The notes under the pieces were generated by a model. That model did no database searches. It saw only the letters and a list, made by a program, of their open reading frames with translations, and was not told the DNA's origin. DNA of 64,000 nt from Candidatus Acidiferrales bacterium (GTDB lineage: Bacteria > Acidobacteriota > Terriglobia > Acidiferrales > UBA7541). The translations under genes and the position numbers were made by a program. Of this stretch, positions 33,029 to 52,388 are shown one piece after another. The first letter of the stretch is position 1. Every line of letters begins with the position of its first letter. The stretch covers positions 433 through 64,432 of the forward strand of contig JBEKSN010000002.1 in the NCBI GenBank assembly GCA_049517055.1, read 5' to 3'.

Positions 33029-34417
33029 ATCACACCCGCTGCGACTAAACCCAAAGTTGCGATTGTTGACGATGACCATAGCCTTCGCTCAAAGATTGCG
33101 TCCGCTCTGCGATCGGAGTTCGAAGTCTTCGAAGGCGAGGATATGGCAGCGGCCTACAGCCTCCTCCAAGGGTCCGCACTTGACGTTTTGCTCCTGGGCC
33201 TCCCGCTCGGTGACGCGGGGGTTCGCGAATGCACCGAGCTGCTTGCCCGGCTGGTCGGAAGCGAAATTGACACCCTCGTAATCGTGCTCAGTTCTGACAA
33301 AACAAAAGCCACCGCTTTGAAAGTGATCGACGCAGGCTCTTACGACTACTTCATCAAGCCCATTGACACGGACGTTCTTCGGCATCTACTCGAGCGAGCC
33401 GTTGAAAAATTACACATTCAGCGCGAAAACCGAATTCTCCGTCAGGAGATAAGCCGCAAGAGCACTCATGGCGATTTAATCGGATCGACCGACGCCATGA
33501 GCCATGTTTTCGATTTCATAAAGCGAATGGCCCGGACGACCACCAATGTCATCATCCGCGGAGAGAGCGGGGTGGGTAAAGAACTTGTCGCAAGGGCCCT
33601 TCACGAACAGAGTCCGCGACGAAACCGTGCATTCGTTAGCGTGAATTGCGCCGCGCTTCCCGAAGGCTTAATGGAAGCTGAGCTATTTGGCTATGAGAAG
33701 GGAGCCTTCACCGGCGCAACGGCCATGAAGGAAGGGCGCGTGGAAATGGCCCACCAAGGAACGCTGTTTCTTGATGAAATTGCGACACTTACGCCCGCTC
33801 TCCAGAGCAAACTCTTGCGTGTGTTGGAGGATCGCTCGTTCACTCGACTAGGCGGCAAAAAGCCCATCCGCGTGGATTTCCGCCTAATTAGTGCGACAAA
33901 CGAAGATCTGGAGGAGATGGTTCGCGAGGAACGGTTTCGCGAAGATCTCTATTACCGAATTCACGTGGTGCCCATTTTCGTGCCCTCTCTACGCGAGAGA
34001 ATGGAAGACATACCGGTGCTTACGGATTACTTCGTCAGCGTTTATTGTGCTGCCAATAGTCTCCCCCCAAAGCGCATTGCGGACGACGCGATGCTGGCCC
34101 TGAAGCGCTACCCGTGGCCTGGGAACGTCCGCGAGCTCCAGAATGCAATTCAAAGGCTGGTTATAATGACGGACGGGGAGGTGATCTCGTTAAAGGACCT
34201 CCCCGGTGAGATTGTGCAAGCTGCCGGCCGGGATTCGCGCAACCGTTTCCGTCTCCCCTCAGGTGGAATAAATCTGGCTAAGGAAATGGAGACTTTCGAG
34301 CGTCGCTGGCTTCAGGAAGCTTTAGAGCAGGCTAAAGACGGGAAAGCCGATGCGGCGCGACTGCTGGGAGTGGACCGGAATCGGTTGAACTACCTATGTC
34401 GTAAGTACAATCTATAA
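33029..34417 (+). CDS. Sigma-54-dependent transcriptional activator (atypical REC - AAA+ - Fis HTH)
   Basis: AAA+ Walker A GESGVGKE, the sigma-54 contact loop GAFTGA, and a C-terminal HTH (AARLLGVDRNRLNYLCRKYNL). The first ATG is at 33143, but the receiver N-terminus (KVAIVDDDHSLR) is encoded in frame upstream with no ATG, GTG or TTG after the in-frame stop at 33008. An ATC at 33029 sits 6 nt after a GGAGA SD. Confidence 0.85.
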   Translation: MTPAATKPKVAIVDDDHSLRSKIASALRSEFEVFEGEDMAAAYSLLQGSALDVLLLGLPLGDAGVRECTELLARLVGSEIDTLVIVLSSDKTKATALKVIDAGSYDYFIKPIDTDVLRHLLERAVEKLHIQRENRILRQEISRKSTHGDLIGSTDAMSHVFDFIKRMARTTTNVIIRGESGVGKELVARALHEQSPRRNRAFVSVNCAALPEGLMEAELFGYEKGAFTGATAMKEGRVEMAHQGTLFLDEIATLTPALQSKLLRVLEDRSFTRLGGKKPIRVDFRLISATNEDLEEMVREERFREDLYYRIHVVPIFVPSLRERMEDIPVLTDYFVSVYCAANSLPPKRIADDAMLALKRYPWPGNVRELQNAIQRLVIMTDGEVISLKDLPGEIVQAAGRDSRNRFRLPSGGINLAKEMETFERRWLQEALEQAKDGKADAARLLGVDRNRLNYLCRKYNL

Positions 34418-34552
34418 GCTTTTGGATGACTTTTTAATCGTCGCGGTGAGAATTTCAACAGAATTTTGCGGTACTTTTGACCCGGAAAGGGCTCGAATAC
34501 TCTAACCTCCTCTCTTTCAGTCCTTTAACTTCCCTGCGTTTCCCTCCGACAT

Positions 34553-34568
34553 TGGAACCAGTTTTGCA
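34553..34568 (+). promoter_or_regulatory. Sigma-54 (-24/-12) promoter TGGAAC-N5-TTGCA for peptide gene A
   Basis: TTGGAACCAGTTTTGCA matches YTGGCACGrNNNTTGCW with exact GG-N10-GC spacing. It lies ~50 nt upstream of the ATG at 34616. Confidence 0.7.
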
Positions 34569-34615
34569 CAGAAGAAGGTGTGACCCAAGCTGTACCTCAA
34601 CGCGGAGGAAGTATC

Positions 34616-34699
34616 ATGGCAAAGAAAATCTTGAAGAAGGCAAAAAAGTTGGAAGAAACGAAGCCCCTCACAAGAGTCGGCTGGGCGAGTAAGACCTAA
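34616..34699 (+). CDS. 27-aa lysine-rich small peptide A (MAKKILKKAKKLEETKPLTRVGWASKT)
   Basis: ATG 7 nt after a GGAGGAA SD, with a sigma-54 promoter upstream and a terminator downstream. Paralogous to 35114..35197. Too short for the ORF track. Confidence 0.65.
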   Translation: MAKKILKKAKKLEETKPLTRVGWASKT

Positions 34700-34766
34700 G
34701 CGTTTTCGCATTACAGGTGCAGCGGCTCGGCTGCGCACCAAGAGATAGCCAATACGGAACTAGCGG

Positions 34767-34800
34767 GCTGCCACCGAAAGGCTGGCAGCTCTTTCTTTTT
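34767..34800 (+). terminator. Intrinsic terminator after peptide gene A
   Basis: GCTGCCA-loop-TGGCAGC stem followed by a T-rich tail (CTCTTTCTTTTT). Confidence 0.6.
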
Positions 34801-35043
34801 ACCAGAAGTAACCTCGCCCGGGATTCGCCCCAGCAGTTCATACCCACGTCTTATTCCGACACTTCTCTTCCAAGGCTCTGCGATGGGGATGAGTACCTAA
34901 GGCATCGCCTGCATATTGAATTATTCAACTCAAACTCAAAAATTAAACACATTTGCTATCGCAGGCCGTTTGCGCGCTGCTCCTTGCCGTCGATAAGTGC
35001 TTTCAAATCAAGTACAGCTCCTCAAGTGGCCCGGTTCACAGTT

Positions 35044-35059
35044 TGGCGCGCGGATTGCA
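35044..35059 (+). promoter_or_regulatory. Sigma-54 (-24/-12) promoter TGGCGC-N5-TTGCA for peptide gene B
   Basis: TTGGCGCGCGGATTGCA has exact consensus spacing. It lies ~55 nt upstream of the ATG at 35114. Confidence 0.7.
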
Positions 35060-35113
35060 CTAGCAGCAGTGTAGGCAGCAGGAAAACAAAAAATTCTAAG
35101 GAGACTCAAGACC

Positions 35114-35197
35114 ATGGCGAAAAAGACAGTGAAAAAGGGAAAGAAGCTCGGATCAGTGAAGCCTCTCAGCTATCACGGGCCAGTTCGCACTAAGTAA
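35114..35197 (+). CDS. 27-aa lysine-rich small peptide B (MAKKTVKKGKKLGSVKPLSYHGPVRTK)
   Basis: ATG after an AAGGAGA SD, with a sigma-54 promoter upstream and a strong terminator downstream. 13 of 27 residues are identical to peptide A, concentrated in MAKKxxKKxKKLxxxKPL. Confidence 0.65.
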   Translation: MAKKTVKKGKKLGSVKPLSYHGPVRTK

Positions 35198-35254
35198 CTT
35201 GGACCTGAAGCAAGCGGGCTTCGTGCCTGCCAAAGTTAGCAGTTGCACTACCAA

Positions 35255-35290
35255 GGGCTGCCGTCCCAGGAACGGCAGCCCTTTTTTATT
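35255..35290 (+). terminator. Intrinsic terminator after peptide gene B
   Basis: Perfect 10-bp stem GGGCTGCCGT / ACGGCAGCCC with a 7-nt loop, followed by TTTTTTATTT. It abuts the stop of the convergent 35331 gene. Confidence 0.8.
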
Positions 35291-35330
35291 TGATGACTGA
35301 GGCTTCTGGCAGCCAGACGGGCCGGGTCTC

Positions 35331-37478
35331 TCACCAAAACTGCGAACGCACCCAGCGCCATGTCGCCAGCCCGCTCTGCCAGGCCAAAGAATGTCTGGGC
35401 CCGGAAATTTTCGCTTTTCCGGTCATGCCTTCCCGCAGGGACCCATCGGGGTTTGGAATTTCCATCTCAACTGCAACGAAGTTTGCCAACTCTTGCCCTA
35501 ATCGCGTGAGCTTCTCTGTCTGCGCGACCGGATGATCCAGCGCCGCGGCCGGAAGTATTTTGTCGATGTGGCCCGTGTAAGTTCTGTACGGAAACGGGAG
35601 CACCTTCACCTTTGCAGAGGCGCCGGGTTGAACGTCCGGAAGTTCCCGGTCCTGTACAAGGATACGCGCCTTCATGGTGCTTCGATTCACCAGCCGCGCA
35701 AACTCGTCCCCCGCCGAAAGGTATTCGCCAGCCTTCTGTTCCACATTTGAAGTAGTGACGACCCCGTCCATGGGAGCTCGAATTTCGAGGTTCTGCAGTC
35801 TTTTCTGCGCTACGGAAAGCTCTTGCTCAAGCCGGCCGCGATTGCGAACCACTTGCGCCGCTTGACTGAAGTCTGAGCGATCCTGATTATTGCGGAGGTT
35901 GCTGCTGGCGAGCCCTAATTGTTGGGTAAGCGATTGCGCGTCGGCACTTATTTCGGGATTCTCCAAAATGGCCAATATTTGCCCCGCTTTTACTACATCG
36001 CTCTCGCGGACAAACACTCTTTGAATTCTGCCGTCAACGGCAGCCCGAACGCGCACATCCTTTCCGGGCTCGAGCACCAAATCGGTAGAGACCTTCGAAG
36101 AAAACGGGGGCAACAGAAATAGCAGAACCAGTCCAAGAGCGCCAACTTGCTGCGCCCGGGTCATTTTCCAGGCCATATATTTCTCCTTCTTGTCCCGCAT
36201 CCAAGCCCGTACGACGGGCAAAGCTTTTCGCAAACCCTTTCTTGCAAAGAAATAGATGACGCCCAGGGTTGCCAGATAGCCCCATTCGTCCCCCAGTTGG
36301 CTCACGAGCACATTCTTAGCAAACACAAGCATGAGAATCAGGAGCGACGAGCTGTAAATCACAGCTGAAATTCCGAACAGGAAGAAAACACGGCGCTGGC
36401 GCTTGCTGGACGGCGGCAAGTCTATGTCATGCCGAAAAATGTACTTCTGCACCCAGGCTCGCAAGTAGCCGAAAGACTCTTCACGCAGGTTATCAATTTT
36501 GAGGAATTGCGAGAGCGCATAGTAGCCGTCGGCTTTGATTAGCGGGTTCAAGTTCACGAGCGCGCCCTGAATGCCGCTCAGCAGCATCATTTTGTAGAAG
36601 AAGTCATTCGTCAGCGAGCCCGGTGCCGTGAAATGCCAGACCAATGCAGCCACTCCGCAGATCACCAGTTCAATCCAAATGCCCGCGAAGATGACCCACT
36701 GACGCGGAGTCCCTGTCTTGAACAGAAGAATGTCCGTGGTGTCAGTAAAAAATGCGGGAGTGAAATAGATGAGCAAAAAACCCATCTGATGAACCTCGCC
36801 GCCAAAATGTTTACAAGTAAGCCCGTGACCGAATTCGTGTATGGCACCCAGACCCAAGAGGAGGAACCAAAAGACCCAGATGTCGTAGGCGCTTTTACCT
36901 GCAAAACTATATAAGGCCTCCGTGTCCTGCTGCACGCGGGTCCAATCGCCGGCGAGCAGATAAACCGCCACAATAAATAGGAACAAAGAAAAGATGACAA
37001 AGCCCTTGGTAAACATCCATCCGAGATAGCGATCCAACTTAGCGAGCGTCTTGTCCGGATCCCAAGCTTTAAAGCTGATGTAGAGGACACTCGATTGCTC
37101 GACCCGACCTTTGCGCTCGTCGCGAATGCGCTCAAGTACAGCCAGGTTTTTTTCCCCGACCGAGCGTTCCCACATAGTGGCTTCCACCGAGTCGAGGAAG
37201 TCGAGCACGTCGGCCTCGCTGGTGGTCAAATCGGGATCCTTTTCAGACATGGCCTGTGCGATCTCGGCAGCCGTACGAGTTCCGTCGCAAAGTGACAGCA
37301 GTTGATATTCCGTGGCCCCGTATCGGTTGTAGGAGTTCGTCTCGCGGTTTTTGACCACGTAACTGATTTCGCCCGCTACCGTTTGTTCGCTGATGCGCAG
37401 ATCGGTACGGAGTTTGGGTCGTTTAAGACCTTTCGCCAGGACGCTGGAAACTTGAAGGCTGGTAGGACCGAAACGCAT
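35331..37478 (-). CDS. PqqD-like (RRE) domain / M50 site-2-protease-like metalloprotease / HlyD membrane-fusion domain fusion protein
   Basis: 715 aa. N-terminal PqqD-like segment (YQLLSLCDGTRTAAEIAQAMSEK...EADVLDFLDSV). HExxH in AIHEFGHGLTCKHFGG and a second S2P motif NLNPLIKADGYYALS within TM helices. C-terminal HlyD barrel-sandwich and coiled coil (VDGRIQRVFVRESDVVKAGQILAIL, LEIRAPMDGVVT). Confidence 0.8.
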   Translation of the reverse strand: MRFGPTSLQVSSVLAKGLKRPKLRTDLRISEQTVAGEISYVVKNRETNSYNRYGATEYQLLSLCDGTRTAAEIAQAMSEKDPDLTTSEADVLDFLDSVEATMWERSVGEKNLAVLERIRDERKGRVEQSSVLYISFKAWDPDKTLAKLDRYLGWMFTKGFVIFSLFLFIVAVYLLAGDWTRVQQDTEALYSFAGKSAYDIWVFWFLLLGLGAIHEFGHGLTCKHFGGEVHQMGFLLIYFTPAFFTDTTDILLFKTGTPRQWVIFAGIWIELVICGVAALVWHFTAPGSLTNDFFYKMMLLSGIQGALVNLNPLIKADGYYALSQFLKIDNLREESFGYLRAWVQKYIFRHDIDLPPSSKRQRRVFFLFGISAVIYSSSLLILMLVFAKNVLVSQLGDEWGYLATLGVIYFFARKGLRKALPVVRAWMRDKKEKYMAWKMTRAQQVGALGLVLLFLLPPFSSKVSTDLVLEPGKDVRVRAAVDGRIQRVFVRESDVVKAGQILAILENPEISADAQSLTQQLGLASSNLRNNQDRSDFSQAAQVVRNRGRLEQELSVAQKRLQNLEIRAPMDGVVTTSNVEQKAGEYLSAGDEFARLVNRSTMKARILVQDRELPDVQPGASAKVKVLPFPYRTYTGHIDKILPAAALDHPVAQTEKLTRLGQELANFVAVEMEIPNPDGSLREGMTGKAKISGPRHSLAWQSGLATWRWVRSQFW

Positions 37479-37490
37479 GGTCGGGTTCCT

Positions 37491-38414
37491 CTACGGCTTT
37501 GATGGCGAGGTTCCAGGCCATCCGACGCGTACCGCCATTCCGGGACGCAGATCGGAAATTCCCGAACCAGTGAGCTGCGCCACCACATTGTAACTATCGC
37601 TGGACGGATCCACGGTAGGACTTACTTTCACCACCTTCGCGCTGACCTGGCGATCGGCACCTCCCACGAGCGTAAGGCTAACCGGCGCGCCGAGTGCGGG
37701 GCGCGGGCTGGCCAATTCGGAAATTTGAAACTGGACCTGCAGAGGATAGAGTTGACTCACTCGAAAACACTTGTCACCCTTGACGATGGCTTGTCCTTCT
37801 CGAACGTAGCGGCGCGCCACGACGCCCGAGAACGGAGCGCGCAAAACGGTCTGGTCGATTTCAATTTCGAGACGGTGGATCTCGGCTTGGCCGCTTTCGA
37901 CCAAGGCCTCATATCCGTGCATGTCGTACTCAGCGCCTTTTGCTTCGAATTCCGCGGCTTCGAGATCAGCCTGACTTGACAGTCCCGCTTCCCGCAACTG
38001 CTGCTGACGCCGGTAGGCTGCGCCCTTAGCCTTCAGTTCCGCTGCTTTGTATTGCAGGTTGTTCTGAGTCACCTTCAGATCGTCGCGCGCCTTGATGAGC
38101 TCCTGTTGCAGGCTTCGGTCGTCAAGGTGGCCAAGAATTTCGCCTGCCTTGACTACGCTGCCTTCGTCTTTGACGACGGACGTCACCGTGCCATCGCGTT
38201 GCGAGGAGAGATCTACCTGATGTTCCACTGTGAGCACGCTTAGAATATCGGGGGTCTCGGTCCCTTTTGCGGAAACTGCGCTTGGCGCGGGAGTCTGAGA
38301 CGAAGCTGCGTTGGATGGCGGCGCATTCTTGGGGCTGGAAGCAACCGACGAATTGTCGCAACCATTTCCGACAATTGCCATTGTAGCGACTAAGATCAAC
38401 GCGGCGCGTTTCAT
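37491..38414 (-). CDS. HlyD/RND-adaptor-family periplasmic lipoprotein
   Basis: 307 aa. Signal peptide ending in Cys (LVATMAIVGNGC), a Ser/Pro linker, and barrel-sandwich/coiled-coil motifs (DGTVTSVVKDEGSVVKAGEILGHLD, LRAPFSGVVA). Only 12 nt from the downstream gene. Confidence 0.8.
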   Translation of the reverse strand: MKRAALILVATMAIVGNGCDNSSVASSPKNAPPSNAASSQTPAPSAVSAKGTETPDILSVLTVEHQVDLSSQRDGTVTSVVKDEGSVVKAGEILGHLDDRSLQQELIKARDDLKVTQNNLQYKAAELKAKGAAYRRQQQLREAGLSSQADLEAAEFEAKGAEYDMHGYEALVESGQAEIHRLEIEIDQTVLRAPFSGVVARRYVREGQAIVKGDKCFRVSQLYPLQVQFQISELASPRPALGAPVSLTLVGGADRQVSAKVVKVSPTVDPSSDSYNVVAQLTGSGISDLRPGMAVRVGWPGTSPSKP

Positions 38415-38433: not shown

Positions 38434-40860
38434 TCACGGCAGCCAGGGCCATATCTTTTGCCAGATCCATCTGAACGGCGAACGCAGAATCACGTACCCA
38501 ACCGGGTACCATCCACTGTCAAACCACCCGCCCCACGACCGAATTCTCACTCGCCCAACCATTCCATCGCGGGCCTTTCCTCCGGCGTTCTCGAATATCG
38601 CGCGCACCAGGAAGTACTGGTCTCCCGAGTCAGTCCGAGTCTGTGCCCCGATGCGATCTACAGTGCCCTCGAACGTAGTTGTCGGGAACGCATTTAACTT
38701 CAGTGACACATTTTCCCCTGGCCGTACGAGCGAAAGATCGGTTTCAGGGACGCTCATTTCCGCAGCCATGCGGTCCTGAGATACTACTTCGCAGAAACTA
38801 TCTCCGGATTTGATCATGGACCCGGATTTTTCTTCCACCTTCGGAGTGGTCACGATGCCGGCGATGGGTGAGGTCAAGCGCGCGTCATTTATTCGTTGCT
38901 GCTCAAGTGCCACTTCAGCGGAATATAGCTGCGAGCGTATCTGAGCCTGTCCTGCCGCTGCGGGGTCATTCCGGAATTCGGCTTCGGCTAATTCACGCCG
39001 CACCTGAGACAACGCGGTGTCGGCTTCTATTAGCTTTATGCGATCCTCGCTGTCGTCGAGTTGCGCAAGCAGCTGGCCTGGCTTCACCAAATCGCCTTCG
39101 CGCACGAAGACTTGTTTTACGACTCCGCCCTCAATTGCGCTCACCATGCGGCGCTCGGATGGGACCACCGTGGCGTCGGTGCCAACGCGCATGGGCCATG
39201 GGATTATCGTCAGAAAAAGGGCCACGATGCCGGCGCGTTGCGCGTATTCCATCATGCGGCTCTGCGGCATAGCCGCCAGGAACTTTTTCTTTCTCTGCGC
39301 AAACGGCTGGAAAATATTCGCCAGCGGAACTTGCTGGTAAAGCTGGGCGTTGCGGATAGCAACCGTAGTCTGGCTGGCAAGGATGGCCAGGGTTTCCAAA
39401 TGGCTTTCTGAGAGAAAATCGGCTTCCTTGCTCAGAAGAATCATTGCGCCGAGCGTCCCTTGATCGTCGCGCAGTGGCAAGCCGTAAAAGCCTTGGTGTT
39501 CATGGGCTTCTAGGAACGAGACAATTTGGGCGTGGGCCTCTGCAGGCTCCACTTGCCAGCCATCCTCATGAAAATTCGCCGAAACGTGACTATCCTGTTC
39601 CGCCACCCACTCCATGCGTTCGCGCAGCTCGCTCATTTCCCGCGTCTTCGGAACTTCCGTTTCTCCGGAGACGGCCCCCAGGACGAAGCGCCCACGGTCG
39701 TAAAATCCAATAACGCAACTCTCAAACGGCACGACAGATGCCGACTGCGCCACTACCGTGGTCAAAACGTGATCGAGATCCAGAGTGGAAGTAATTTCCT
39801 GCGAAATTTTCAACAGGGCATCGAGGGCGTGAACCTTTCGCTCGGACTCCAGCAGGTTTGCATTGTGCAGTGCCACCGCGGCCTGTTCGCTGATACTCGA
39901 GAGGAAAAATAGGTCGTCTTCATTGAACAGCGTACCGTCCGCCTTATTAATGATCTCGACGACACCGAGAACCTCGTCGTCTTTTCGCAGGGGCGCCGCC
40001 ATCCAAGACTGAAGCTCGAAATCTCCGCCAGCTTCAATGCGTTCGGCTAGCCCGGCTTCCCCGCTCGGGTCTTCGACTAACTTCGGGTTTGCTTGCTGCG
40101 CAACTTCAGCCAGCAAACCTTCACTTAATGACGCGGTGGCGTCCTCTTCAACCGTAGGGTCATCGCCGATTTGCCTCGCAAGACTGAGTTCCTGTCCGCC
40201 AGGCGAAGCGAGCCAGAGATTGCAGGCTCCGGCCCCCAAAATGTCGCGGATTTTACCCGCTACGATGGGGAGAAGCTCTTCCAGTTCCAGAGTTGACGTA
40301 AATGTCTGGCCCAGGTCGTATAGCGCGGTCAGGCGTTCGAGAGTGGCGAGTTGGCTCTGACGTTCCTGCTCAATCGCGCCCAGATTGGTCAGTGCGCGGC
40401 CTGCCAGCTGGCATGCTTCTTCCAGGAAGTGCGCGTCTTCGGCGGTGAAGTCCCCGGCGCGCTTATTGAGAACCTCGACTACGCCTTCCGGCCTTTGCGC
40501 TCCCGGCAGGGATGAATACAAAGCGGATTTCACGCGCGTACGGCTGAACTCATCAAGATGCTCAAGATCTTCTGGTGCGATTTCGCGTGCGGGCAAACGC
40601 CTGGTGGCGGCTGATTGGTACAATATTGCGAGCGTTCCCCCGTTGACAGGCAATTCGGTGGGATGCAAGCGTTCGCCCGGCTCAGTCCAGCGCATGCGGC
40701 AAAGGAGTTCCTCTGCTGTTCCGTTCGTCGTCCATACGAGCACGGCGCGCGCTCCGAGCGTAGTGCCCACTCGGGCGGCGAAGGTCTTCAGCAGGGTGTC
40801 TTGATCGCGGCACGCTAAAGATATGCTCGCGAGCTCAAAAAGCGCGGAAGATGTTTCCAT
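38434..40860 (-). CDS. Triple-GAF sensor fused to a TM-anchored HlyD membrane-fusion domain
   Basis: Three GAF-like modules, each ending in ...AVALHNANLLESER-type helices. One TM helix (AGIVALFLTIIPWP) is followed by HlyD motifs (IEGGVVKQVFVREGDLVKPGQLLAQLD, LTSPIAGIVT). The ATG at 40860 follows a GGGAGAG SD. The ORF-track start at 40941 would overlap the candidate promoter. Confidence 0.75.
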   Translation of the reverse strand: METSSALFELASISLACRDQDTLLKTFAARVGTTLGARAVLVWTTNGTAEELLCRMRWTEPGERLHPTELPVNGGTLAILYQSAATRRLPAREIAPEDLEHLDEFSRTRVKSALYSSLPGAQRPEGVVEVLNKRAGDFTAEDAHFLEEACQLAGRALTNLGAIEQERQSQLATLERLTALYDLGQTFTSTLELEELLPIVAGKIRDILGAGACNLWLASPGGQELSLARQIGDDPTVEEDATASLSEGLLAEVAQQANPKLVEDPSGEAGLAERIEAGGDFELQSWMAAPLRKDDEVLGVVEIINKADGTLFNEDDLFFLSSISEQAAVALHNANLLESERKVHALDALLKISQEITSTLDLDHVLTTVVAQSASVVPFESCVIGFYDRGRFVLGAVSGETEVPKTREMSELRERMEWVAEQDSHVSANFHEDGWQVEPAEAHAQIVSFLEAHEHQGFYGLPLRDDQGTLGAMILLSKEADFLSESHLETLAILASQTTVAIRNAQLYQQVPLANIFQPFAQRKKKFLAAMPQSRMMEYAQRAGIVALFLTIIPWPMRVGTDATVVPSERRMVSAIEGGVVKQVFVREGDLVKPGQLLAQLDDSEDRIKLIEADTALSQVRRELAEAEFRNDPAAAGQAQIRSQLYSAEVALEQQRINDARLTSPIAGIVTTPKVEEKSGSMIKSGDSFCEVVSQDRMAAEMSVPETDLSLVRPGENVSLKLNAFPTTTFEGTVDRIGAQTRTDSGDQYFLVRAIFENAGGKARDGMVGRVRIRSWGGWFDSGWYPVGYVILRSPFRWIWQKIWPWLP

Positions 40861-40931: not shown

Positions 40932-40947
40932 AGCCTAGCAAATGCCA
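40932..40947 (-). promoter_or_regulatory. Candidate sigma-54-type promoter (TGGCAT-N5-AGGCT) for the GAF-HlyD/HlyD/M50 operon
   Basis: The minus strand reads TGGCATTTGCTAGGCT with correct GG-N10-GC spacing. The -24 element is strong and the -12 element is degenerate. It lies ~75 nt upstream of the ATG at 40860. Confidence 0.35.
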
Positions 40948-41063
40948 TGTATAGCGTCAAGGAAGACCGCTGTCGCCATCTGCCGTATTTCTTAGAAGTT
41001 TTTTGCAGGGACTTGATTGCCGGACATAATTCAGATAGCTTTGCAAAGCGCAGTGAGGCACAT

Positions 41064-41399
41064 GTGAACATTGGCATCCGCAAGGCTGGCCGAGCCACAA
41101 TCCTGGATCTCGACGGGCCGCTGAAATTGGGCGACGCTGAAGAATCTTTTCGCAATCAGATTCAGCAGCTCATCGAAGCGGGGACCACACACGTAGCTGT
41201 GAATCTCGCCGGCGTTACGGAACTCGACAGCTCGGGGATTGGGGCACTCGTTCGTGCGTTCACCACGCTGAAGCGCGCGGGCGGAAAATGCACCTACTTC
41301 GCGCCGAATAAGCGGGTAGTGATGCTGTTGAAAATGGTCCGGCTCGACACAATTCTTGACCTCGCCGAAGACGAAGCTACAGCTCTTACGCGCATCTAG
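41064..41399 (+). CDS. STAS-domain protein (anti-sigma-factor antagonist family)
   Basis: SpoIIAA-like sequence (ILDLDGPLKLGDAEE...VAVNLAGVTELDSSGIGALV). The GTG at 41064 follows a GAGG SD. ORF-track start 40947 is an alternative. Confidence 0.7.
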   Translation: MNIGIRKAGRATILDLDGPLKLGDAEESFRNQIQQLIEAGTTHVAVNLAGVTELDSSGIGALVRAFTTLKRAGGKCTYFAPNKRVVMLLKMVRLDTILDLAEDEATALTRI

Positions 41400-41477: not shown

Positions 41478-42143
41478 TTAACGGCGATCGAGCGCTGGAT
41501 GCCGTACGTCGCGGCCGGCGACGAAGTAAATCACGTCTTCGGCGATGTTTGTCGCGTGGTCTCCGATGCGTTCGATGTTTTTCGCCACCAGAACAAGCTC
41601 GAAGGCGGTGAACACCACGGCGGAGTTTTCCATCATGTAGGTAAGCAACTCGCGGAAGAGTTGGTCGCGCAGCCGGTCCACCTGGTCATCGCGCTGGAGC
41701 ACGCTATGGGCTAGCTCGATATCTCCTCGCACCAGGGCATTCAAGCTATCGCGGACCATCCCTTCGGCCAGCTCGCTCATTCGCGGCAAATCAACGTAAG
41801 GCTTCACCTGTGGATGGCGCATGATCCGCGTTGCCGATTGCGCGATATTGACAGCTTGGTCTCCGATGCGCTCAAGGTCTCCGTTGATGCGCGAAACCGC
41901 CAGCAAGAATCGCAAGTCGGCGGCCATAGGCTGTTGCAGTGCCAGCAAACGTTGCACGCGCTCGTCGATTTCAATCTGAATCTCGTTAATTGCATCTTCT
42001 TCAGTCAAAACGGTCTCGGCGAGGTGCTCTTCACCATCCAGCACCGCGTGGATCGCCTGATGGACGGCTCGCTCGGCGAGGCTTCCCATCCAAAGCAGTC
42101 GCTGTTTCAGTTCTTCGAGGTCTCGCTCAAAATGTCGTTCCAT
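41478..42143 (-). CDS. phoU: Phosphate signalling complex protein PhoU
   Basis: 221 aa with duplicated PhoU repeats (NGDLERIGDQAVNIA, AKNIERIGDHATNIAEDVIY). Lies downstream of pstB. Confidence 0.9.
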   Translation of the reverse strand: MERHFERDLEELKQRLLWMGSLAERAVHQAIHAVLDGEEHLAETVLTEEDAINEIQIEIDERVQRLLALQQPMAADLRFLLAVSRINGDLERIGDQAVNIAQSATRIMRHPQVKPYVDLPRMSELAEGMVRDSLNALVRGDIELAHSVLQRDDQVDRLRDQLFRELLTYMMENSAVVFTAFELVLVAKNIERIGDHATNIAEDVIYFVAGRDVRHPALDRR

Positions 42144-42197
42144 GTTTCCTCAGACCTTTCCGTTTCTGCGTGCAATAGCCCGATGAACCAATCCACT

Positions 42198-43037
42198 TTA
42201 GCCAAAGCGGCCGGTAATGTAGGCCTCAGTACGCGGATCGGTAGGCGTCGTAAATAGTTTAGATGTTTCGCTGTGTTCGATGAGTTTGCCGTCAAGCATG
42301 AAGGCTGTGAAATCGCTGGCGCGGGCCGCCTGCTGCATGTTGTGAGTAACGATTGCCATGGTGCAGCTATCCTTCAGCTGAAACAATAATTCTTCAATCT
42401 TTGCGGTCGTCACCGGATCCAGCGCGGAGCAGGGCTCGTCCAGCAAAAGCACTTCAGGGTTCACGGCGAGCGCGCGCGCAATACACAGCCTCTGCTGCTG
42501 CCCGCCGGAAAGCGCGAACGCCGACTTGTGAAGGTAATCCTTGACCTCGTCCCAAAGCGCCGCGCGGTGCAGGCTGCTTTCTACGAGTTCGTCGAGACGC
42601 CCCTTATAACCATTGATGCGAAGTCCATACGCCACGTTTTCATAAATCGACTTCGGAAAGGGATTCGGCCTCTGAAACACCATTCCGACACGACGCCGCA
42701 GATTCACCACATCCATCGAATGTATATCTTGGCCGTCGAGCAAGATCTCGCCATCCACGCGAGTGTTTCTGATGATCTCGTTCATGCGGTTCAACGTGCG
42801 CAGGAATGTCGACTTTCCGCATCCCGAAGGTCCGATTAAGGCGGTCACCTTGTTCACCGGGATCTTCAGGTTCAGCCCAAAGATGGCCTGCTTTGGGCCG
42901 TAGAAAAAATTCAGGTCGGAGATCTGAAAGCGCACCGGCGTCTCCTTTTCCGAAGCCATCGAGCGAGGATCATTCATACGCACTTGCGGAGCGAGTCTTG
43001 CGGCGGTGGCATTGCTGCCTTGGGAAATCGACGGCAT
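42198..43037 (-). CDS. pstB: Phosphate ABC transporter ATP-binding protein
   Basis: Walker [10 protein letters not shown], signature [15 protein letters not shown], Walker B LLLDEP. Confidence 0.95.
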
Positions 43038-43038
43038 A

Positions 43039-43893
43039 TCACGCGCTCCTGACCGCGCTGCCGCGGTTCAGTAGAAGACGGGCACCCAGATTTGCAACCA
43101 GCACCAATCCCAATAATACCAAGCCCGCGGCCCACGCCTGCCTATGCCAATCATCATACGGCGCGATGGCATATGTATATATCATGACCGGAAGTGACGC
43201 GGTCGGCTGTTCGAAGCCAGGGCTCCAAAACCGGTTCCCGAAGGCGGTAAAGAGCAGCGGCGCAGTTTCCCCGGCAACCCGCGCGAGCGCCAGCAGCATT
43301 CCCGTTAGTATGCCGCCGCTTGCTGCGGGCAGCACGACGGTAACGATAGTCTTCCACTTACTGGCTCCCAGCGCCATTGCGCCTTCGCGCAGGCTTCCGG
43401 GCACCGCCCTAAGAAACTCCTCCGTGCTTCGTACCGTGATCGGGATCACCATCATCCCTAGCGCCACGCCGCCGGCGAGCGCGGAGAAATGTTTCACCGG
43501 CAGCACCACCAGCGAGTACGCGAAAATACCTATAACGATGGACGGCACGCCGTTCAGCAAATCCGTCGTGTACCGTACGACGAACGAAAATGTTTTGCCC
43601 CCGAACTCCGCAAGATACACGCCGGTAAGCAATCCTACCGGGAGGCCCATCAAAGCTGCCAACATCAGCAGCTTCAGGCTGCCAACAATGGCGTTGGCCA
43701 TTCCACCGCCCGATTCACCCACGGGCTTCGGGAGCTGCGTAAAAAAATTCCAATTCAGCGATTTGCCGCCGTTCCAGATCAAATAGCCAAGGATAAAAAA
43801 CAAAATCGAAACCACTCCAAGCGCGGCTATTCCGGTCAAGCTCAGCATTACGTAATTCAATGACTTTCGCCAGACAATACGTGGATTACTCAT
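43039..43893 (-). CDS. pstA: Phosphate ABC transporter permease PstA
   Basis: The start [10 protein letters not shown] forms an ATGA overlap with the pstC stop. Carries the EAA-loop [13 protein letters not shown]. The longer ORF to 44217 lies inside pstC. Confidence 0.9.
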
Positions 43894-44888
43894 GCGGGCC
43901 GACCTCCTCCGCGTCCGGTGGCGACAATCAAAATCCGAGCCAAGCCATTCAGAATAAACGTGATCAGGAATAGCACCAGCCCCAACTCGATCAGCGAACT
44001 CAAATACAAGTCTCCGGTCGCTTCCGTGAATTGGCTGGCGATGGTGGAAGCGATGGTATCGCCGGGCGAAAGCAGCGAGGCGGCGATCGTTGGCGCATTG
44101 CCTATCACCATGGTAACGGCCATCGTTTCGCCCAGCGCGCGTGCCAAGGCGAGGAATACAGAACCCATGATGCCGGTGCGAGCCCATGGGACCACTACCT
44201 TCCAAGTGGATTCCCATCGCGTTGCGCCCATCGCAAGCGCCGCTTCGCGCTGCTCGCGCGGCACCGTCAACAGAACTTCCCGCGAAACAGAAATGATGAA
44301 CGGCACGACCATAATCGCCAGAACGATCCCAGCGGTCAGAAAGCCGACTCCGTAATTGGGTCCATGGAACAACGCCCCGATGTAGGGAACATTACCGAGT
44401 GTGTGAATCAGGGCCGGACCTATCGTCGTGCGCATCACTGGCACAACTATAAAAATTCCCAGCAGGCCATAGATCACGCTGGGGACAGCCGCCAGCAAAT
44501 CAATCAAAAACGAGATGACGTCACTGACCTTGCGCGGCGCGAGCTCGGAGAGAAAAATCGCGCTCGCAAGCCCAAGCGGAACCGCGAGGCAGAGCGCCAC
44601 TGCTGAAGTGACTAACGTTCCATATATGAACGGCGCCGCACCAAAGTTGTCAAAGTTCGGATCCCACACCCTAGTCCAGAAAAACATCCATCCGAATTTT
44701 GCCCGGGAAAGATGTGAATTCGCCCAGAGCTCGTACACCAGCATCGACGTGATGAGGAGTATAAAGGCTGAAAATGTAAGGGTAACGAGGTGAGCGATTT
44801 CGTCGCCGCTGCGCAGCCGGCGAAGAAACGCGCGAGGGCCCGCTTGCGGCGGAACCTCGTGCGCGATTGTGGTAGCGGCCGCGGACAT
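43890..44888 (-). CDS. pstC: Phosphate ABC transporter permease PstC
   Basis: 332 aa with six TM helices and the EAA-loop QREAALAMGATRWE. Confidence 0.9.
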   Translation of the reverse strand: MSAAATTIAHEVPPQAGPRAFLRRLRSGDEIAHLVTLTFSAFILLITSMLVYELWANSHLSRAKFGWMFFWTRVWDPNFDNFGAAPFIYGTLVTSAVALCLAVPLGLASAIFLSELAPRKVSDVISFLIDLLAAVPSVIYGLLGIFIVVPVMRTTIGPALIHTLGNVPYIGALFHGPNYGVGFLTAGIVLAIMVVPFIISVSREVLLTVPREQREAALAMGATRWESTWKVVVPWARTGIMGSVFLALARALGETMAVTMVIGNAPTIAASLLSPGDTIASTIASQFTEATGDLYLSSLIELGLVLFLITFILNGLARILIVATGRGGGRPA

Positions 44889-44889
44889 T

Positions 44890-45912
44890 TTACTGAATCA
44901 GCGAAATCGCCTTCGTCTCCCGCGCGATTAGTTCTTTTGGTAGCTGGGCATAGGTTAAGCCCTCATTGTACTTCTGACCTTCCGCCAACATCCATTTCAG
45001 AAAATCCTTGATGGCCTCACGCTTCGCTGCGTCCTGAATTTGCGCGGGAATCAGCAGCCACGTGAAACTTGAAATGGGATAAACCTTTGGCCCTGGAGCG
45101 TTAGTAATCGAAACGCGGAAGTCTTCCGGAATGTTCTTGGCATCGGCGGCCGCTGCTGCCGTTACTCCTGCCAAATCCGCCTTAACGAAGTTTCCCGCTG
45201 CGTTCTGAACTTTCCCGTAAGGAATGTTGTTTTGCACGGCGTAGATCAACTCGATGTAGCCGATCGAGTTCGGCGTTTGCTTGACCAGCCCGGTCACGCC
45301 TTCGTTGCCCTTGCCACCCAGCCCTACCGGCCAATTCACGGAAGTGGCTGCGTTCCCCACTTTTTTCTTCCAATCCTCGCTGACCTTCGCCAAAAAATCC
45401 GTCCAGATGTAGGTGGTCCCACTGCCGTCCGAACGGTGAACCACAACGATATCTGCACTCGGAAGTTTCACGCCCGCATTCGCTTTGGCGATTTCCGGGT
45501 CATCCCACTTGGTGATCGTTCCGAGATAAATTCCCGCTAACGCCTTCTGTGTGAAATTTAGTTCCCCGGATACGCCCGCGATATTGTAAGTCGGCACCAC
45601 TGCGCCGAGCACGGTGGGAAAATGCAGGATCTTGAACTTCGATTGCGAGAGCTGCTCATCCGTCATGGGTCCATCAGAAGCGCCGAAATCCACGGTGCCG
45701 GCCTGCAGTTGACGTATCCCGCCGCCCGATCCGATGGATTGGTAGTTAATCTGAATGTTCGGGTGCGCGGTGTGGTAAACGTCAAACCACTTGGAATAAA
45801 TCGGATAGGGAAAAGTGGCGCCAGCGGCATTTAGCAGCACCGTTCCATTTTGGGCTGCCGCGATGGCAGCCAGGCCGAGCGCGAGCGACACAACTAGCAG
45901 GCTCTTTTTCAT
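44890..45912 (-). CDS. pstS: Phosphate ABC transporter substrate-binding protein PstS
   Basis: The start MKKSLLVVSLALGLAAIAAAQ follows an AGGAGAA SD. PBP motifs GATFPYPIYSKW and SIGSGGG. ORF-track start 45936 is eight codons upstream. Confidence 0.9.
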   Translation of the reverse strand: MKKSLLVVSLALGLAAIAAAQNGTVLLNAAGATFPYPIYSKWFDVYHTAHPNIQINYQSIGSGGGIRQLQAGTVDFGASDGPMTDEQLSQSKFKILHFPTVLGAVVPTYNIAGVSGELNFTQKALAGIYLGTITKWDDPEIAKANAGVKLPSADIVVVHRSDGSGTTYIWTDFLAKVSEDWKKKVGNAATSVNWPVGLGGKGNEGVTGLVKQTPNSIGYIELIYAVQNNIPYGKVQNAAGNFVKADLAGVTAAAAADAKNIPEDFRVSITNAPGPKVYPISSFTWLLIPAQIQDAAKREAIKDFLKWMLAEGQKYNEGLTYAQLPKELIARETKAISLIQ

Positions 45913-45940
45913 GTTCTTGAATTCTCCTGGTCCCATTTTT

Positions 45941-46900: not shown

Positions 46901-48667
46901 TTAGCTGGAAAGAGGAATGGAAAAAGAGAACTTCGATCCTTGGCCCACCGCGCTCTCAACCCACAGGCGCCCACCGTGAGCTTCCACAATGTGCTTGGCA
47001 ATCGAAAGCCCCAGCCCGGTACCGCCGGCTTCCCGAGATCGCGCAGCGTCCACTCTGTAAAAGCGCTCGAAAATCCGCTCCTGGTCGGCCTGCGGTATTC
47101 CAATACCGGAATCTGAAATCGTAATGGTTGCTTCGTGAGGCCCTGCGCTTGCTTCGACAACTATTCGGCCGCCCGGCGGCGTGTACTGGATAGCATTATC
47201 GAGCAAATTCTGCAATACGTCATGCAGCAGACTCGCGTCGCCGCGCAGGGCCGGAATCCCGGCTGGAACTTCCATGCTGAATGAAATTTGCTTACGGCTG
47301 GCTTTAAGCAAAGTCGTCTCCGCACAGCCTTCGATCAGTTCCTGCACGCCGACCGGAAAAAATTCCAATTCAAGCTTTCCTGCCTCGATGCGGGCTAGTT
47401 TCAATAAATCATCTGTTACGCGAGCCAGGCGTACTGCATGCTCGCGAATGATTTCCAAAAACCGCCGATTGTTCTTGGGATCGTCAACCGCTCCGGCCAA
47501 CAGAGTCTCGGCAAAACCCTGAATAGCGGTCAAGGGAGTCTTGAATTCGTGCGAGACATTTCCCACAAAATCCTGGCGGACGCGTTCGAGCCGCCGCAAT
47601 TCGGTCACATCGTGCAAAACGACCACCGCTCCGGATGGCTTGTCCGCTGGCACGTTTCGATCCGCGTCCAGGGCTTGCACGGGCGCGGCAGTTACCGAAA
47701 AACTCAGAGGTTGCACGATTCCTATCTCGATATCGTTCTGCAGACCTTCCTCGCCTTGCAAAGCTTTGCGAATAAGACCGATCAATTCCGAGCTTCGAAC
47801 GACTTCAATTAACGGACTGCCTTCGCTGGTCACTGATTGAACATTTAGAATGTCTGAAAACGCGCGATTGCAGAACACCAGCCGTTCTTGCGCATCCACT
47901 ACGGCCACGCCTTCGACCATGCTGCGGAGGATCGCGCTCGACCGGTTGCGCTCGCTGCTTAGCAAGCGTATCTCACGGTCCAGGTGCGCCGCCGTTTTGT
48001 TCATTGAGTCAGCAAGGTCGGAAAGTTCGTCACGTGGTCCCACCGCCAGCCAAGGGTGAAAGTCTCCAGCGGCGATTCGTTGGGAGAAATCTTTCAGGTG
48101 TTCGACGCGCGCAACAAAAATACGCGCGAAAATCAGGGATACCCCAATTCCGATCGCTAAAATGATTAGCGAAGCAACCAGTAACCGCTGACGAAGCTCT
48201 TTTAGCGACAAATCATTTTGCGCCAGCGGTAATGCCAGGCGAATCACGATAGGCGAACCAGAAGCTGGCTGAAAACGTTGCGCTCGGCACACGAGTTCAC
48301 GGACACTATCAACCGACCGTCCCACACCATTAGCGAGAGCTTGTTGCACCTCGGGCCAATCGCTCGGTTTTTCGGGGTCGCCTGCGCCATTTGCCGAGTC
48401 CGCTAGAACCCCTCCCGAAGCATTGATTACGGTGACACGCGCTCCGCTTTTCGCCATCCAGTCGGTCCAGGCACGCACTGCCACCTCGCTGAATGCGTCC
48501 GGTGGGCGCGCCTGCGCAAGATTGAACAGCGAAACGAGCTGATCGTTTGCAGAGCGTATCGAGTGGCTACGAACCACGCGGGCAGAATAGGAATCAACGG
48601 CGATTAAAACGCCAAGCAGAAGGACCAGGTACGTCAGTCCCAGCCGCCAGAAAAGCCTAGCTCGCAC
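46901..48667 (-). CDS. phoR: Phosphate regulon sensor histidine kinase
   Basis: 588 aa: TM - periplasmic domain - TM - HAMP - PAS - HisKA (SHEFKTPLTAIQGF) - HATPase (GTGLGLSIAKHIV). Overlaps the phoB stop. Confidence 0.85.
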   Translation of the reverse strand: MRARLFWRLGLTYLVLLLGVLIAVDSYSARVVRSHSIRSANDQLVSLFNLAQARPPDAFSEVAVRAWTDWMAKSGARVTVINASGGVLADSANGAGDPEKPSDWPEVQQALANGVGRSVDSVRELVCRAQRFQPASGSPIVIRLALPLAQNDLSLKELRQRLLVASLIILAIGIGVSLIFARIFVARVEHLKDFSQRIAAGDFHPWLAVGPRDELSDLADSMNKTAAHLDREIRLLSSERNRSSAILRSMVEGVAVVDAQERLVFCNRAFSDILNVQSVTSEGSPLIEVVRSSELIGLIRKALQGEEGLQNDIEIGIVQPLSFSVTAAPVQALDADRNVPADKPSGAVVVLHDVTELRRLERVRQDFVGNVSHEFKTPLTAIQGFAETLLAGAVDDPKNNRRFLEIIREHAVRLARVTDDLLKLARIEAGKLELEFFPVGVQELIEGCAETTLLKASRKQISFSMEVPAGIPALRGDASLLHDVLQNLLDNAIQYTPPGGRIVVEASAGPHEATITISDSGIGIPQADQERIFERFYRVDAARSREAGGTGLGLSIAKHIVEAHGGRLWVESAVGQGSKFSFSIPLSS

Positions 48668-51735: not shown

Positions 51736-52387
51736 TGGAGCCGGCAAATTGAACTTGCGTAACACACCCTCGATCCGCTTATCGTCTGATGCTGTCGGCG
51801 AGCGCCGCAGAATCTCTAGGCTCGTTTTGGGTTTCCTCTTACAAATATTTTTTTGGTCCTCTGCTTTTAATTTCCCAGCGGTCTTGCCGGCGCAAGTGAG
51901 GCCTCCAAGCGAATATGAGCTAAAGGCCGCCTTCCTTTTCAACTTCGCGAAATTCATAGATTGGCCTTCGAATATGTTCGCCGATCCTAAGGCTCCTTTC
52001 TTGGTCTGCGTTCTCGGAACTGACCCTTTTGGCGGCGCGCTCGATAACGCGTTGCGAGGGAAGGTGATTGCGGAGCATCCGGCAAGTGTCAGCCGGATAA
52101 AGCGCGTTGGTGATATCAATGGCTGCCAGATCTTGTTCGTCGCGGCTTCCGAGAGTCATCTGCTGCCCGAAATCCTGGCCAAGATTCGCGGCCAGTATGT
52201 CTTGGTGATCGGCGAAACTGATGATTTCGCATCTTCAGGAGGTGCCATCCAGTTCACTTTGGAGGAAAACCGAGTCCGTTTCTTCATAAATCCAGATGCC
52301 GCAGACCGCGCCGGTCTGAAGATCAGTTCGAAACTCTTGGCATTGGCAAAAATTGTGCGTGACGCTCCCGCCGCCGGAAAAAGCTGA
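51704..52387 (+). CDS. YfiR-like (DUF4154) periplasmic protein
   Basis: The YELKAAFLFNFAKFIDWP motif is characteristic of DUF4154/YfiR, and the GGAIQF...RFFINP tail fits. The start is uncertain: ATG 51704 overlaps the TBDR end, and TTG 51749 or 51755 are alternatives. Confidence 0.7.
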   Translation: MATPSSRGDSDGAGKLNLRNTPSIRLSSDAVGERRRISRLVLGFLLQIFFWSSAFNFPAVLPAQVRPPSEYELKAAFLFNFAKFIDWPSNMFADPKAPFLVCVLGTDPFGGALDNALRGKVIAEHPASVSRIKRVGDINGCQILFVAASESHLLPEILAKIRGQYVLVIGETDDFASSGGAIQFTLEENRVRFFINPDAADRAGLKISSKLLALAKIVRDAPAAGKS

Positions 52388-52388
52388 T

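Follow-up and report, generated by a model that had tools for sequence, protein, structure and literature searches.

Positions 35331 to 37478 on the minus strand of a 64-kb stretch of DNA from an Acidobacteriota bacterium, Candidatus Acidiferrales (contig JBEKSN010000002.1; 64,000 nucleotides, hereafter the window), encode a single polypeptide of 715 residues that shows three domains. These are a PqqD-like RRE (recognition element of peptides made by ribosomes and modified after translation, or RiPPs) at about residues 21-100, a membrane metalloprotease core of the M50 or site-2 protease (S2P) type at about residues 140-350 and, beyond a transmembrane anchor, a periplasmic adaptor at residues 462-715. 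The gene, referred to below as the fusion gene, begins with an ATG 12 nt past the stop codon of the gene upstream and closes a tightly packed minus-strand operon, whose first gene encodes a GAF-domain protein with an adaptor of its own and whose second encodes a lipoprotein-like adaptor. Convergent with this operon lie the gene for a sigma-54-dependent activator and two open reading frames (ORFs) for peptides of 27 residues, peptides A and B (Table 1). Copies of the fusion protein that are 100% identical occur on three metagenome contigs, from peat and soil, and in one metagenome-assembled genome of Candidatus Acidiferrales (Acidobacteriota).

Table 1. Features of the fusion-gene locus, with positions in the window.
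Feature	Position	Strand	Basis and remarks
Fusion gene: RRE / M50 (S2P) protease / periplasmic adaptor, 715 aa	35331..37478	-	ORF and domain profiles; last of three operon genes
RRE (PqqD-like winged helix), residues 21-100, predicted cytoplasmic	37179..37418	-	Profile against PDB, AlphaFold (AF2), Foldseek
M50/S2P membrane core, residues ~140-350	36429..37061	-	NF041824; 3b4r and SpoIVFB by profile and fold; predicted local distance difference test (pLDDT) mostly 83-98
HEFGH zinc-binding/catalytic motif (H214, E215, H218)	36825..36839	-	Translation, conservation
NLNPLIKADGYY motif (N309, P312, D317, G318), S2P 'NxxPxxxxDG', third zinc ligand	36519..36554	-	Conservation, 3b4r alignment
Periplasmic adaptor (HlyD/membrane-fusion protein), residues 462-715: lipoyl, short alpha-hairpin (508-562), beta-barrel; after transmembrane anchor ~444-460	35334..36095	-	HlyD_D23, TIGR01730, Foldseek
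307-aa HlyD-type adaptor, lipoprotein-like signal (…IVGNGC), middle operon gene	37491..38414	-	TIGR01730 6.5e-37; 80/80 and 20/20 loci
808-aa protein: three cytoplasmic GAF domains, transmembrane segment, HlyD-type adaptor; first operon gene	38434..40860	-	77/80 and 20/20 loci
STAS-domain protein (anti-sigma-antagonist type), divergent from operon	40947..41399	+	STAS 5.1e-15; 60/80 and 19/20 loci
Sigma-54-dependent activator (bacterial enhancer-binding protein), receiver-like domain N-terminally truncated	33143..34417	+	Sigma54_activat 1.7e-70; 75/80 and 20/20 loci
Sigma-54 -24/-12-like site TGGAACCAGTTTTGC	34553..34567	+	Ends 48 nt upstream of peptide A start codon
Peptide A precursor, 27 aa: leader MAKKILKKAKKLEETKPL, tail TRVGWASKT	34616..34699	+	GGAGGA Shine-Dalgarno upstream; hairpin and U-tract 34765-34791 downstream
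Sigma-54 -24/-12-like site TGGCGCGCGGATTGC	35044..35058	+	Ends 55 nt upstream of peptide B start codon
Peptide B precursor, 27 aa: leader MAKKTVKKGKKLGSVKPL, tail SYHGPVRTK	35114..35197	+	
Intrinsic-terminator hairpin, 12 bp then T-tract	35253..35283	+	Between convergent peptide B gene and protease gene

Three domains in one polypeptide

Each of the three domains is supported by profile, AlphaFold and Foldseek evidence. The Pfam PqqD model matches the single sequence only weakly (E 0.0028; 18.4 bits, under the cut-off of 23.4), and a family profile was therefore built for residues 18-140 from an alignment (A1) of 60 diverse relatives and run against 177,635 PDB sequences. Its best four matches are all leader-binding RREs, namely TbiB1, PqqD (two entries) and TfuB1, with E values of 0.0034-0.036. 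Consistent with this, the AlphaFold model (residues 1-465; 70 sequences at 23-87% identity; mean pLDDT 86.8, predicted TM-score 0.80) has strands at residues 28-34, 37-44 and 49-54 followed by helices at 55-63, 70-80 and 88-97, all with a pLDDT of about 86-94, which is the beta3-alpha3 fold of an RRE. This model superseded an earlier run on 53 close homologues, in which the protease core was poor (mean pLDDT 63). Foldseek matches the modelled domain to the leader-peptide complexes of TbiB1 and TfuB1 with a probability of 0.99-1.00, a TM-score of 0.59-0.71 and a root-mean-square deviation of 3.1-4.5 A. PF05402 is present in some homologues, and one homologue is named for the PqqD family.

For the protease core, Pfam Peptidase_M50 (PF02163) gives an E value of 8e-5 and 22.5 bits, which does not reach its cut-off of 27.2; a precomputed PF02163 match is present in many homologues at about 72-75% identity. 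Two NCBIfam models of peptide-dedicated proteases also match below their cut-offs. The first, NF041824 (daptide HExxH intramembrane metalloprotease), covers residues 34-412 (E 2.9e-53; 181.4 bits against 300), and the second, NF058609 (YydH/LiaK), covers residues 157-332 (E 1.1e-11). With 44.9 bits against a cut-off of 225, the protein is outside the YydH/LiaK family.

The catalytic residues are strongly conserved. H214, E215, N309, P312, D317 and G318 show no variation in either of two alignments, one of 22 sequences at 31-40% identity (A3) and one of 70 sequences at 23-87% identity (A4); H218 is invariant in the former and at least 90% conserved in the latter. HEFGH sits inside a model helix spanning residues 197-224, while the family profile aligns NLNPLIKADG (309-318) with the FNLIPAFPMDG segment of 3b4r, the Methanocaldococcus jannaschii S2P. 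The same profile finds 3b4r (E 0.0045) and SpoIVFB (E 0.042) in the PDB, and 3b4r_A is the first-ranked Foldseek match of the model (probability 1.00; TM-score 0.45 on the target). By its motifs and its modelled fold, the fusion protein is a member of the S2P clan, and zinc-dependent proteolytic activity is predicted for it.

For the adaptor, HlyD_D23 matches with an E value of 4.7e-21 and TIGR01730 with 102.7 bits, over its cut-off of 94.9, and among PDB structures Foldseek returns MacA (E 5.7e-16) and MexA (TM-score 0.70-0.75), with AcrA and ZneB as well. Basic stretches at residues 117-130, 357-364 and 413-443 flank the hydrophobic helices, the last of which (444-460) precedes the adaptor. 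Read by the positive-inside rule rather than by a dedicated predictor, these stretches suggest that the RRE is cytoplasmic, that HExxH lies near the cytoplasmic end of its helix and that the adaptor is periplasmic.

An earlier note, made from the letters of the window, had described this gene as an RRE, an M50 protease and a HlyD membrane-fusion domain in one chain. The analysis bears that description out. The ORF lies where it had been placed, its features were judged far beyond chance, and the strings quoted from it can all be located: HEFGH at residues 214-218, NLNPLIKADGYY at 309-320 and LLSLCDGTRTAAEIAQAMSEK...EADVLDFLDSV within 60-98. The two motifs read as those of S2P/M50 enzymes are upheld by their conservation, by the 3b4r alignment and by the rank of 3b4r in Foldseek. 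Likewise, the N-terminal RRE is backed by the family profile, the modelled fold and the TbiB1 and TfuB1 matches, and the C-terminal membrane-fusion domain by HlyD_D23, by TIGR01730 and by the MacA and MexA folds. All three folds are thus supported despite the sub-cut-off Pfam scores for PqqD and M50.

To gauge the breadth of the family, we searched residues 1-460 against 1.84 billion cluster representatives (50%-identity clusters). This N-terminal half found 9,434 clusters at E <=1e-3, of which 1,389 reached E <=1e-30, and 103 of the 150 best-scoring cluster representatives also have a C-terminal region that matches the adaptor domain. Relatives come from varied phyla and under varied names, including 'PqqD family protein' (Gemmatimonadota), 'site-2 protease family protein' (Gemmataceae), 'hemolysin D' (Pirellulales) and 'M50 family metallopeptidase' (Verrucomicrobiae, Sinobacterium). 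Given the frequency of the adaptor among the best clusters and this spread of phyla, the RRE-S2P-adaptor fusion is a widespread family and not a local accident. NCBI names the 715-residue protein itself 'efflux RND transporter periplasmic adaptor subunit', while homologues at about 92% identity and below are labelled 'putative peptide zinc metalloprotease protein' at JGI, which we take to be the label of KEGG orthologue K16922.

Lys-rich precursor genes and a conserved five-gene module

Peptides A and B belong to a family of small Lys-rich precursors that is found in 68 of 81 sources, in 1-6 copies per locus, and almost always in the interval that separates the activator gene from the 3' end of the protease gene. 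The leader of the family, MAKKxLKKxKKLExTKPL, is near-invariant: counted back from the end of KPL, K-15, K-11, K-9, K-8, K-3 and L-1 are almost invariant and P-2 is present in 90%. The tails that follow are hypervariable, with an entropy of 2.9-3.8 bits per position and 105 distinct sequences among 109. They are 5-13 residues long, most commonly 6-9. Cys is absent from them, Asp and Glu nearly so, and most have K, R, P or G at the end, where K or R is the commonest residue (48/109). At the DNA level, variation in the leader amounts to 13.2 bits at third codon positions against 1.2 at second positions, and a Shine-Dalgarno sequence precedes 51 of 56 genes. This count of synonymous and non-synonymous change is partly circular, since the sequences were selected by a protein pattern, but changes at third positions beneath an unchanging peptide still carry information. 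None of the precursor peptides is matched by an NCBIfam or Pfam model. A non-coding RNA in 34300-35400 was considered and rejected, Rfam having returned sub-threshold noise only.

These observations bear on two claims of the earlier note. Two adjacent Lys-rich ORFs of 27 residues are indeed present; they are not, however, members of the protease operon but convergent with it. The link that had been drawn between the fusion protein and these peptides is considerably strengthened by the near-invariant leader, the hypervariable tail and the co-occurrence of the two across lineages.

The genes for peptides A and B each have their own sigma-54-like site and their own terminator-like hairpin. Counting both strands of the 64 kb, only nine sites have at most one mismatch, and the sites upstream of A and B are among them. 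Across the family, 106 of 136 peptide genes have a GG-N10-GC site in the 120 nt upstream of them, compared with 3% of random control positions.

More distant loci carry other small ORFs near the protease gene (related loci are given here by L numbers, with positions in each locus). At 33-38% identity, a different Lys-rich small ORF stands in the same place (MAVSKKSLI…TVESAKMVSA…). At about 35-38% identity, small ORFs have a Lys-rich head (MAVTKKSI…) followed by tandem repeats, in which AMKAVS occurs six times, TMRT three times and ASRMLT three times; examples are L129 12162-12389 (-), which holds the six AMKAVS repeats, L150 12266-12460 (-) and L157 4665-4829 (-). Such ORFs could be multi-core precursors. 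In some 'type B' peptides, an xPL element is repeated several times after the leader (…VKPLMSTRPLTRVTPLMRPIA), as in L067 10246-10365 (-), L068 10244-10360 (-) and L041 4092-4202 (-), and the repetition hints at several cleavage sites per precursor. Arrays of 5-6 Lys-rich precursor genes, on both strands, lie upstream of the STAS gene rather than downstream of the protease in L065 (2286-3830) and L066 (2191-3694).

Relatives at about 30-38% identity adjoin precursor-like ORFs of still other types: seven with IEELEERIAP in L166, two with VELEKRIAP in L083 and one with KLEDRIAP in L084. The KLEETKPL and KLGSVKPL of the window occupy the same place as these ELEERIAP-type motifs, directly before the variable part. 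The L166 locus (98-5729, +) encodes an 815-residue relative with its seven small ORFs upstream, whose hypervariable regions are rich in Pro, Gly and Asn, and a PCMT-type (isoaspartyl) methyltransferase directly after it. Judged from its sequence, this set looks like a separate, unexplored RiPP-like family.

The neighbours of the fusion gene were compared in 77 related genome loci (counts over 80) and by ORF clustering in 20 long loci. Among the former, the three adaptor proteins occur in 77-80 of 80, the activator in 75 and the STAS protein in 60. In the long loci, which reach down to 33% identity, the GAF-adaptor, the lipoprotein adaptor, the fusion protein and the activator are present in 20/20 each and the STAS protein in 19/20, and these five families are the only ones conserved. 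In these 20 loci the module has no conserved companion among transporters, ATPases, outer-membrane factors, kinases or modifying enzymes. Loci from the metagenome scan at 33-38% identity keep the same gene order. In two still more distant loci, L084 and L168 (28-30% identity), the trio of GAF-adaptor, short adaptor and RRE-S2P-adaptor genes is joined by an OEP/TolC-like gene in one operon.

Several features of the individual module genes deserve mention. The longest ORF of the 3xGAF-adaptor gene reaches 40941, while gene callers begin it at 40860. The STAS gene is usually divergent from the GAF-adaptor gene and lies beyond the activator in a few loci; it has no conserved partner kinase or phosphatase. 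The receiver-like domain of the activator (33143-33520, +) aligns to NtrC only from NtrC residue 78, lacks the acidic pocket and has no evident Asp at the phospho-acceptor position (…DVLLLGLPLGD…). Ordinary phosphorylation is thus unlikely to control the activator.

Other neighbours were considered as parts of the system and set aside. The Pst/PhoU, formamidase, DUF2127, nitrilase-family and agmatine-deiminase genes are not conserved with the module. Next to the STAS gene are genes for PhoU (41478-42143, -) and a PstB-type ABC ATPase (42198-43037, -). Gene tables of the identical contigs, L001 and L002, were the only basis for reading the rest of 41478-45936 (-) as a Pst operon (PstA, PstC, PstS); the Pst genes are a chance neighbour, as they are kept only in the closest relatives. 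At 11958-16341 (+) the window holds a tripartite efflux operon, composed of an OEP/TolC-like gene (11958-13460), a HlyD adaptor gene (13461-14759) and an MFS transporter gene (14773-16341). The first of these genes indicates that the genome has a TolC-type channel. As a candidate for the missing exporter, the pump was rejected, being unlinked in related loci and already having an adaptor of its own. A role in anti-phage defence was likewise rejected: PADLOC has no match for the three adaptor proteins or the STAS protein, and the activator matches generic RtcR/PspF-type models only.

Further away, a signalling cluster at 46901-48667 (-) and 52353-58701 (+) encodes a PAS histidine kinase, a CHASE8-HAMP-PAS hybrid kinase with Hpt, a MASE1-PAS kinase and a receiver-GGDEF protein. 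The sole radical-SAM gene of the window (17647-18813, -) is more than 14 kb from the nearest module gene, outside the stretch examined for conservation.

A proposed maturation pathway and its rivals

With moderate confidence, we favour the view that the fusion protein is a leader-guided intramembrane maturation protease, permanently fused to a periplasmic adaptor, that trims the Lys-rich peptides and helps in their export. In the pathway that we infer, the adjoining sigma-54 activator would turn on the precursor genes A and B, each with its own -24/-12 promoter and terminator. The cytoplasmic RRE would bind the conserved Lys-rich leader (…KKLExTKPL), as its co-conservation with leader-bearing small ORFs suggests, and the S2P zinc site (H214/E215/H218/D317), near the cytoplasmic face of the membrane, would make its cut at the KPL boundary or next to it. 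The short cationic tail, about 5-13 residues of variable sequence, may then be passed outward through an assembly made up of the protein's own adaptor domain, the 3xGAF-adaptor and the lipoprotein adaptor. This assembly would dock onto a TolC-type outer-membrane channel; in this clade the gene for such a channel would lie elsewhere, and in distant relatives it is part of the operon. Outside the cell, the released peptides would carry light modifications or none and would serve as signals or antimicrobials.

The earlier note had suggested that one protein could recognise a leader, cleave it within the membrane and couple release to a periplasm-spanning adaptor. The three folds and the link to the peptides support this suggestion, the fusion is widespread rather than unique to this genome, and 'coupled release' is the least certain part because no energising transporter is conserved with the module.

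A number of observations weigh against the favoured view. Both the PqqD and the M50 Pfam scores of the protein are under the gathering cut-offs. No peptide is found at E <0.01 in 13 of the 81 sources, several of which are short contigs or have a divergent peptide type. The peptide genes lie outside the operon and convergent with it, and the peptides are very hydrophilic, unlike the usual transmembrane or hydrophobic substrates of S2Ps. Export is the weakest step. In the 20 long loci the module is accompanied by no conserved ABC, RND or MFS transporter and by no other conserved ATPase, no TolC-type gene is part of it in the clade of the Acidiferrales protein, and the exit of cationic peptides against an inside-negative membrane potential is unfavourable.

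A bolder form of the proposal would turn the missing motor into the point. In this form, the module would be an envelope-spanning machine, so far unrecognised, for the maturation and secretion of peptides. Three different adaptors would form a TolC-type conduit with the S2P protease at its base, where an ATP-driven transporter would otherwise be; intramembrane cleavage of the RRE-bound leader would commit short unmodified peptides to export; and the conduit would be gated through cytoplasmic GAF and STAS sensors and fed with precursors by sigma-54. We put it forward tentatively and think it doubtful as a whole. If it were true, an S2P-based conduit could underlie peptide signalling in Acidobacteriota and in several other diderm phyla.

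The absence of a motor can also be met by placing one elsewhere. The fusion protein might be a leader peptidase only, with its adaptor docking to a separate energised exporter (ABC or MFS, with TolC), and the peptides might be modified by unlinked enzymes and thus be true RiPPs. Adaptor proteins do not normally work without an inner-membrane transporter, the window does contain a complete OEP-HlyD-MFS pump (11958-16341), and in L166 the protease gene is directly followed by that of a PCMT-type methyltransferase. Set against this are the 20/20 long loci without a conserved transporter or modifying enzyme near the module, a pump that has its own adaptor and is unlinked in related loci, and tails that lack Cys and any conserved modifiable residue. 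We regard such an arrangement as unlikely.

The signalling parts of the module invite another explanation, which we hold to be less likely again, namely that this is a device for regulated intramembrane proteolysis. The S2P would cut a regulator in the membrane or the cytoplasm; the GAF, STAS and sigma-54 activator proteins would form the signalling chain; the peptides would be outputs, decoys or inhibitors; and the adaptors would sense the envelope or anchor to it. Classical S2Ps such as RseP and SpoIVFB act in signalling, and SpoIVFB is among the profile matches; STAS and GAF domains are typical signalling parts conserved with the module, and the truncated receiver of the activator implies unusual control. 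The RRE, however, is a module for binding leader peptides, and we know of no RRE in signalling S2Ps. Moreover, no anti-sigma factor or other membrane substrate is conserved in the 20 long loci, and the pattern of leader and hypervariable tail, together with the multi-copy arrays in relatives, is the signature of processed peptides.

Hypervariable tails would also fit an arms race, and an adaptor assembly without an obvious export motor might belong to an immunity or clearance system, in which related peptides would be caught at the envelope and degraded. The RRE is predicted to be in the cytoplasm, however, where newly made precursors are, and the precursors lack signal peptides and are encoded by the producer beside the system; we consider clearance a long shot. 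Hardly any weight is left for an ordinary efflux-pump adaptor whose N-terminal half is merely an unusual membrane anchor, which the NCBI name and TIGR01730, the only curated model over its cut-off, would favour, since 460 residues of RRE and S2P have catalytic residues that are invariant across phyla and the module contains no RND gene.

Should the maturation pathway hold, it would define a large, cross-phylum family of peptide-processing proteins that are now annotated as efflux-pump adaptors or as peptide zinc metalloproteases. It would also define a new family of ribosomal precursors, with Lys-rich leaders, hypervariable cationic products of 5-13 residues and tandem-repeat versions in relatives. 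The puzzle would then be how a peptide could cross two membranes with three adaptors and a protease but no ATPase dedicated to the task. The producers, Acidobacteriota that abound in peat and soil, are members of a dominant soil phylum whose secreted peptides and cell-cell signals are, to our knowledge, essentially unknown.

Comparison with known systems

The RRE-S2P half of the protein was already known as the architecture of MpaP. The literature searched, the coverage of which excludes some journals, describes neither the RRE-S2P-adaptor fusion nor the module of three adaptors nor the Lys-rich precursor family. Its only relevant papers were those on daptides, and the RRE-Finder paper does not mention the fusion. 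A preprint on TMcin was considered as a precedent and rejected, as it concerns another S2P family, DUF3267. An RRE-guided S2P peptidase would be no surprise to specialists; what would surprise them is its fusion to an adaptor in a transporter-less module of three adaptors, the sigma-54-driven Lys-rich precursors and the breadth of the system in Acidobacteriota.

The C-terminal 250 residues resemble MacA, MexA and AcrA in their order of lipoyl domain, alpha-hairpin and beta-barrel (Foldseek TM-score 0.63-0.75). Unlike those adaptors, the fusion protein has no partner transporter gene and is anchored by a protease domain of nine helices instead of a lipid or a single helix. Its hairpin is short, with about 23 + 26 residues, and the canonical R-x3-L-x6-S tip motif is not evident by eye.

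In colicin V export (CvaAB-TolC) and in RaxABC, a peptidase-containing ABC transporter works with a HlyD-type accessory protein and TolC. The pathway proposed here would follow the same logic, in that removal of a leader at the inner membrane would be tied to an adaptor reaching an outer-membrane channel, and the putative substrates are again small ribosomal peptides in which a conserved leader precedes a variable product. The differences are considerable: the peptidase is a zinc S2P and not a C39 cysteine peptidase, there is neither an ABC ATPase nor a double-glycine leader, protease and adaptor form one polypeptide, and two further adaptor paralogues are present.

Among S2Ps, those of the Eep/RseP type in Firmicutes release short linear signalling peptides without further modification. 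Eep differs from the fusion protein in cutting lipoprotein signal peptides or SHP precursors within the membrane, in having a PDZ domain rather than an RRE and in relying on a separate ABC exporter. The earlier note had turned instead to YydH of the Bacillus subtilis yydFGHIJ locus. The comparison captures a weak M50 likeness, confined to the membrane core that NF058609 (246 positions) matches, and a shared theme, in that YydH/LiaK, a membrane metalloprotease of M50-like type, is devoted to a small ribosomal peptide, as the fusion protein would be. YydH is not known to have an RRE or an adaptor domain, and the radical-SAM epimerase and ABC exporter of its locus have no counterpart in the module. 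YydH is thus not the closest comparator, MpaP being nearer.

MpaP, the leader peptidase of the daptides, consists of an intramembrane site-2 protease with an RRE fused to its N-terminus (Ren et al., Nat Commun 2023; 10.1101/2023.03.08.531785), and the fusion protein shares this arrangement, NF041824 covering both parts of it. It differs in its adaptor, the daptide profile (379 positions) being without one. Several further differences separate the two systems. The daptide enzymes MpaB (DUF-RRE), MpaC (oxidative decarboxylase), MpaD (aminotransferase) and MpaM (methyltransferase) are not among the conserved neighbours; the peptides have no invariant C-terminal Thr, their leaders are Lys-rich and their tails are short and cationic rather than hydrophobic helices; and the host is a diderm acidobacterium, while daptide hosts are Actinomycetota or Bacillota. 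The score of 181 against 300 bits, the absence of the daptide enzymes and the lack of the C-terminal Thr rule place the protein outside the daptide family.

The two systems are closest in the layout of their loci, where the protease adjoins several small precursor genes that share a short conserved leader, ELExMEAP in daptides, KLExTKPL here and ELEERIAP in relatives. The daptide RRE-S2P fusions were themselves found through their co-occurrence with small ORFs bearing the ELExMEAP leader, and its residues -8 to -1 matter for processing by the RRE-containing partner (10.1101/2023.03.08.531785). The strings EERIAP, EKRIAP and LEDRIAP were not found in the literature searched. On the likeness of these leaders to ELExMEAP, we take the small ORFs to be probable substrates of the RRE-S2P half across the superfamily. 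If the maturation pathway holds, an 'LExxx(A/P)(P/L)' leader element may be a common handle for RRE-S2P proteases, those of the daptides included, and would be useful for genome mining.

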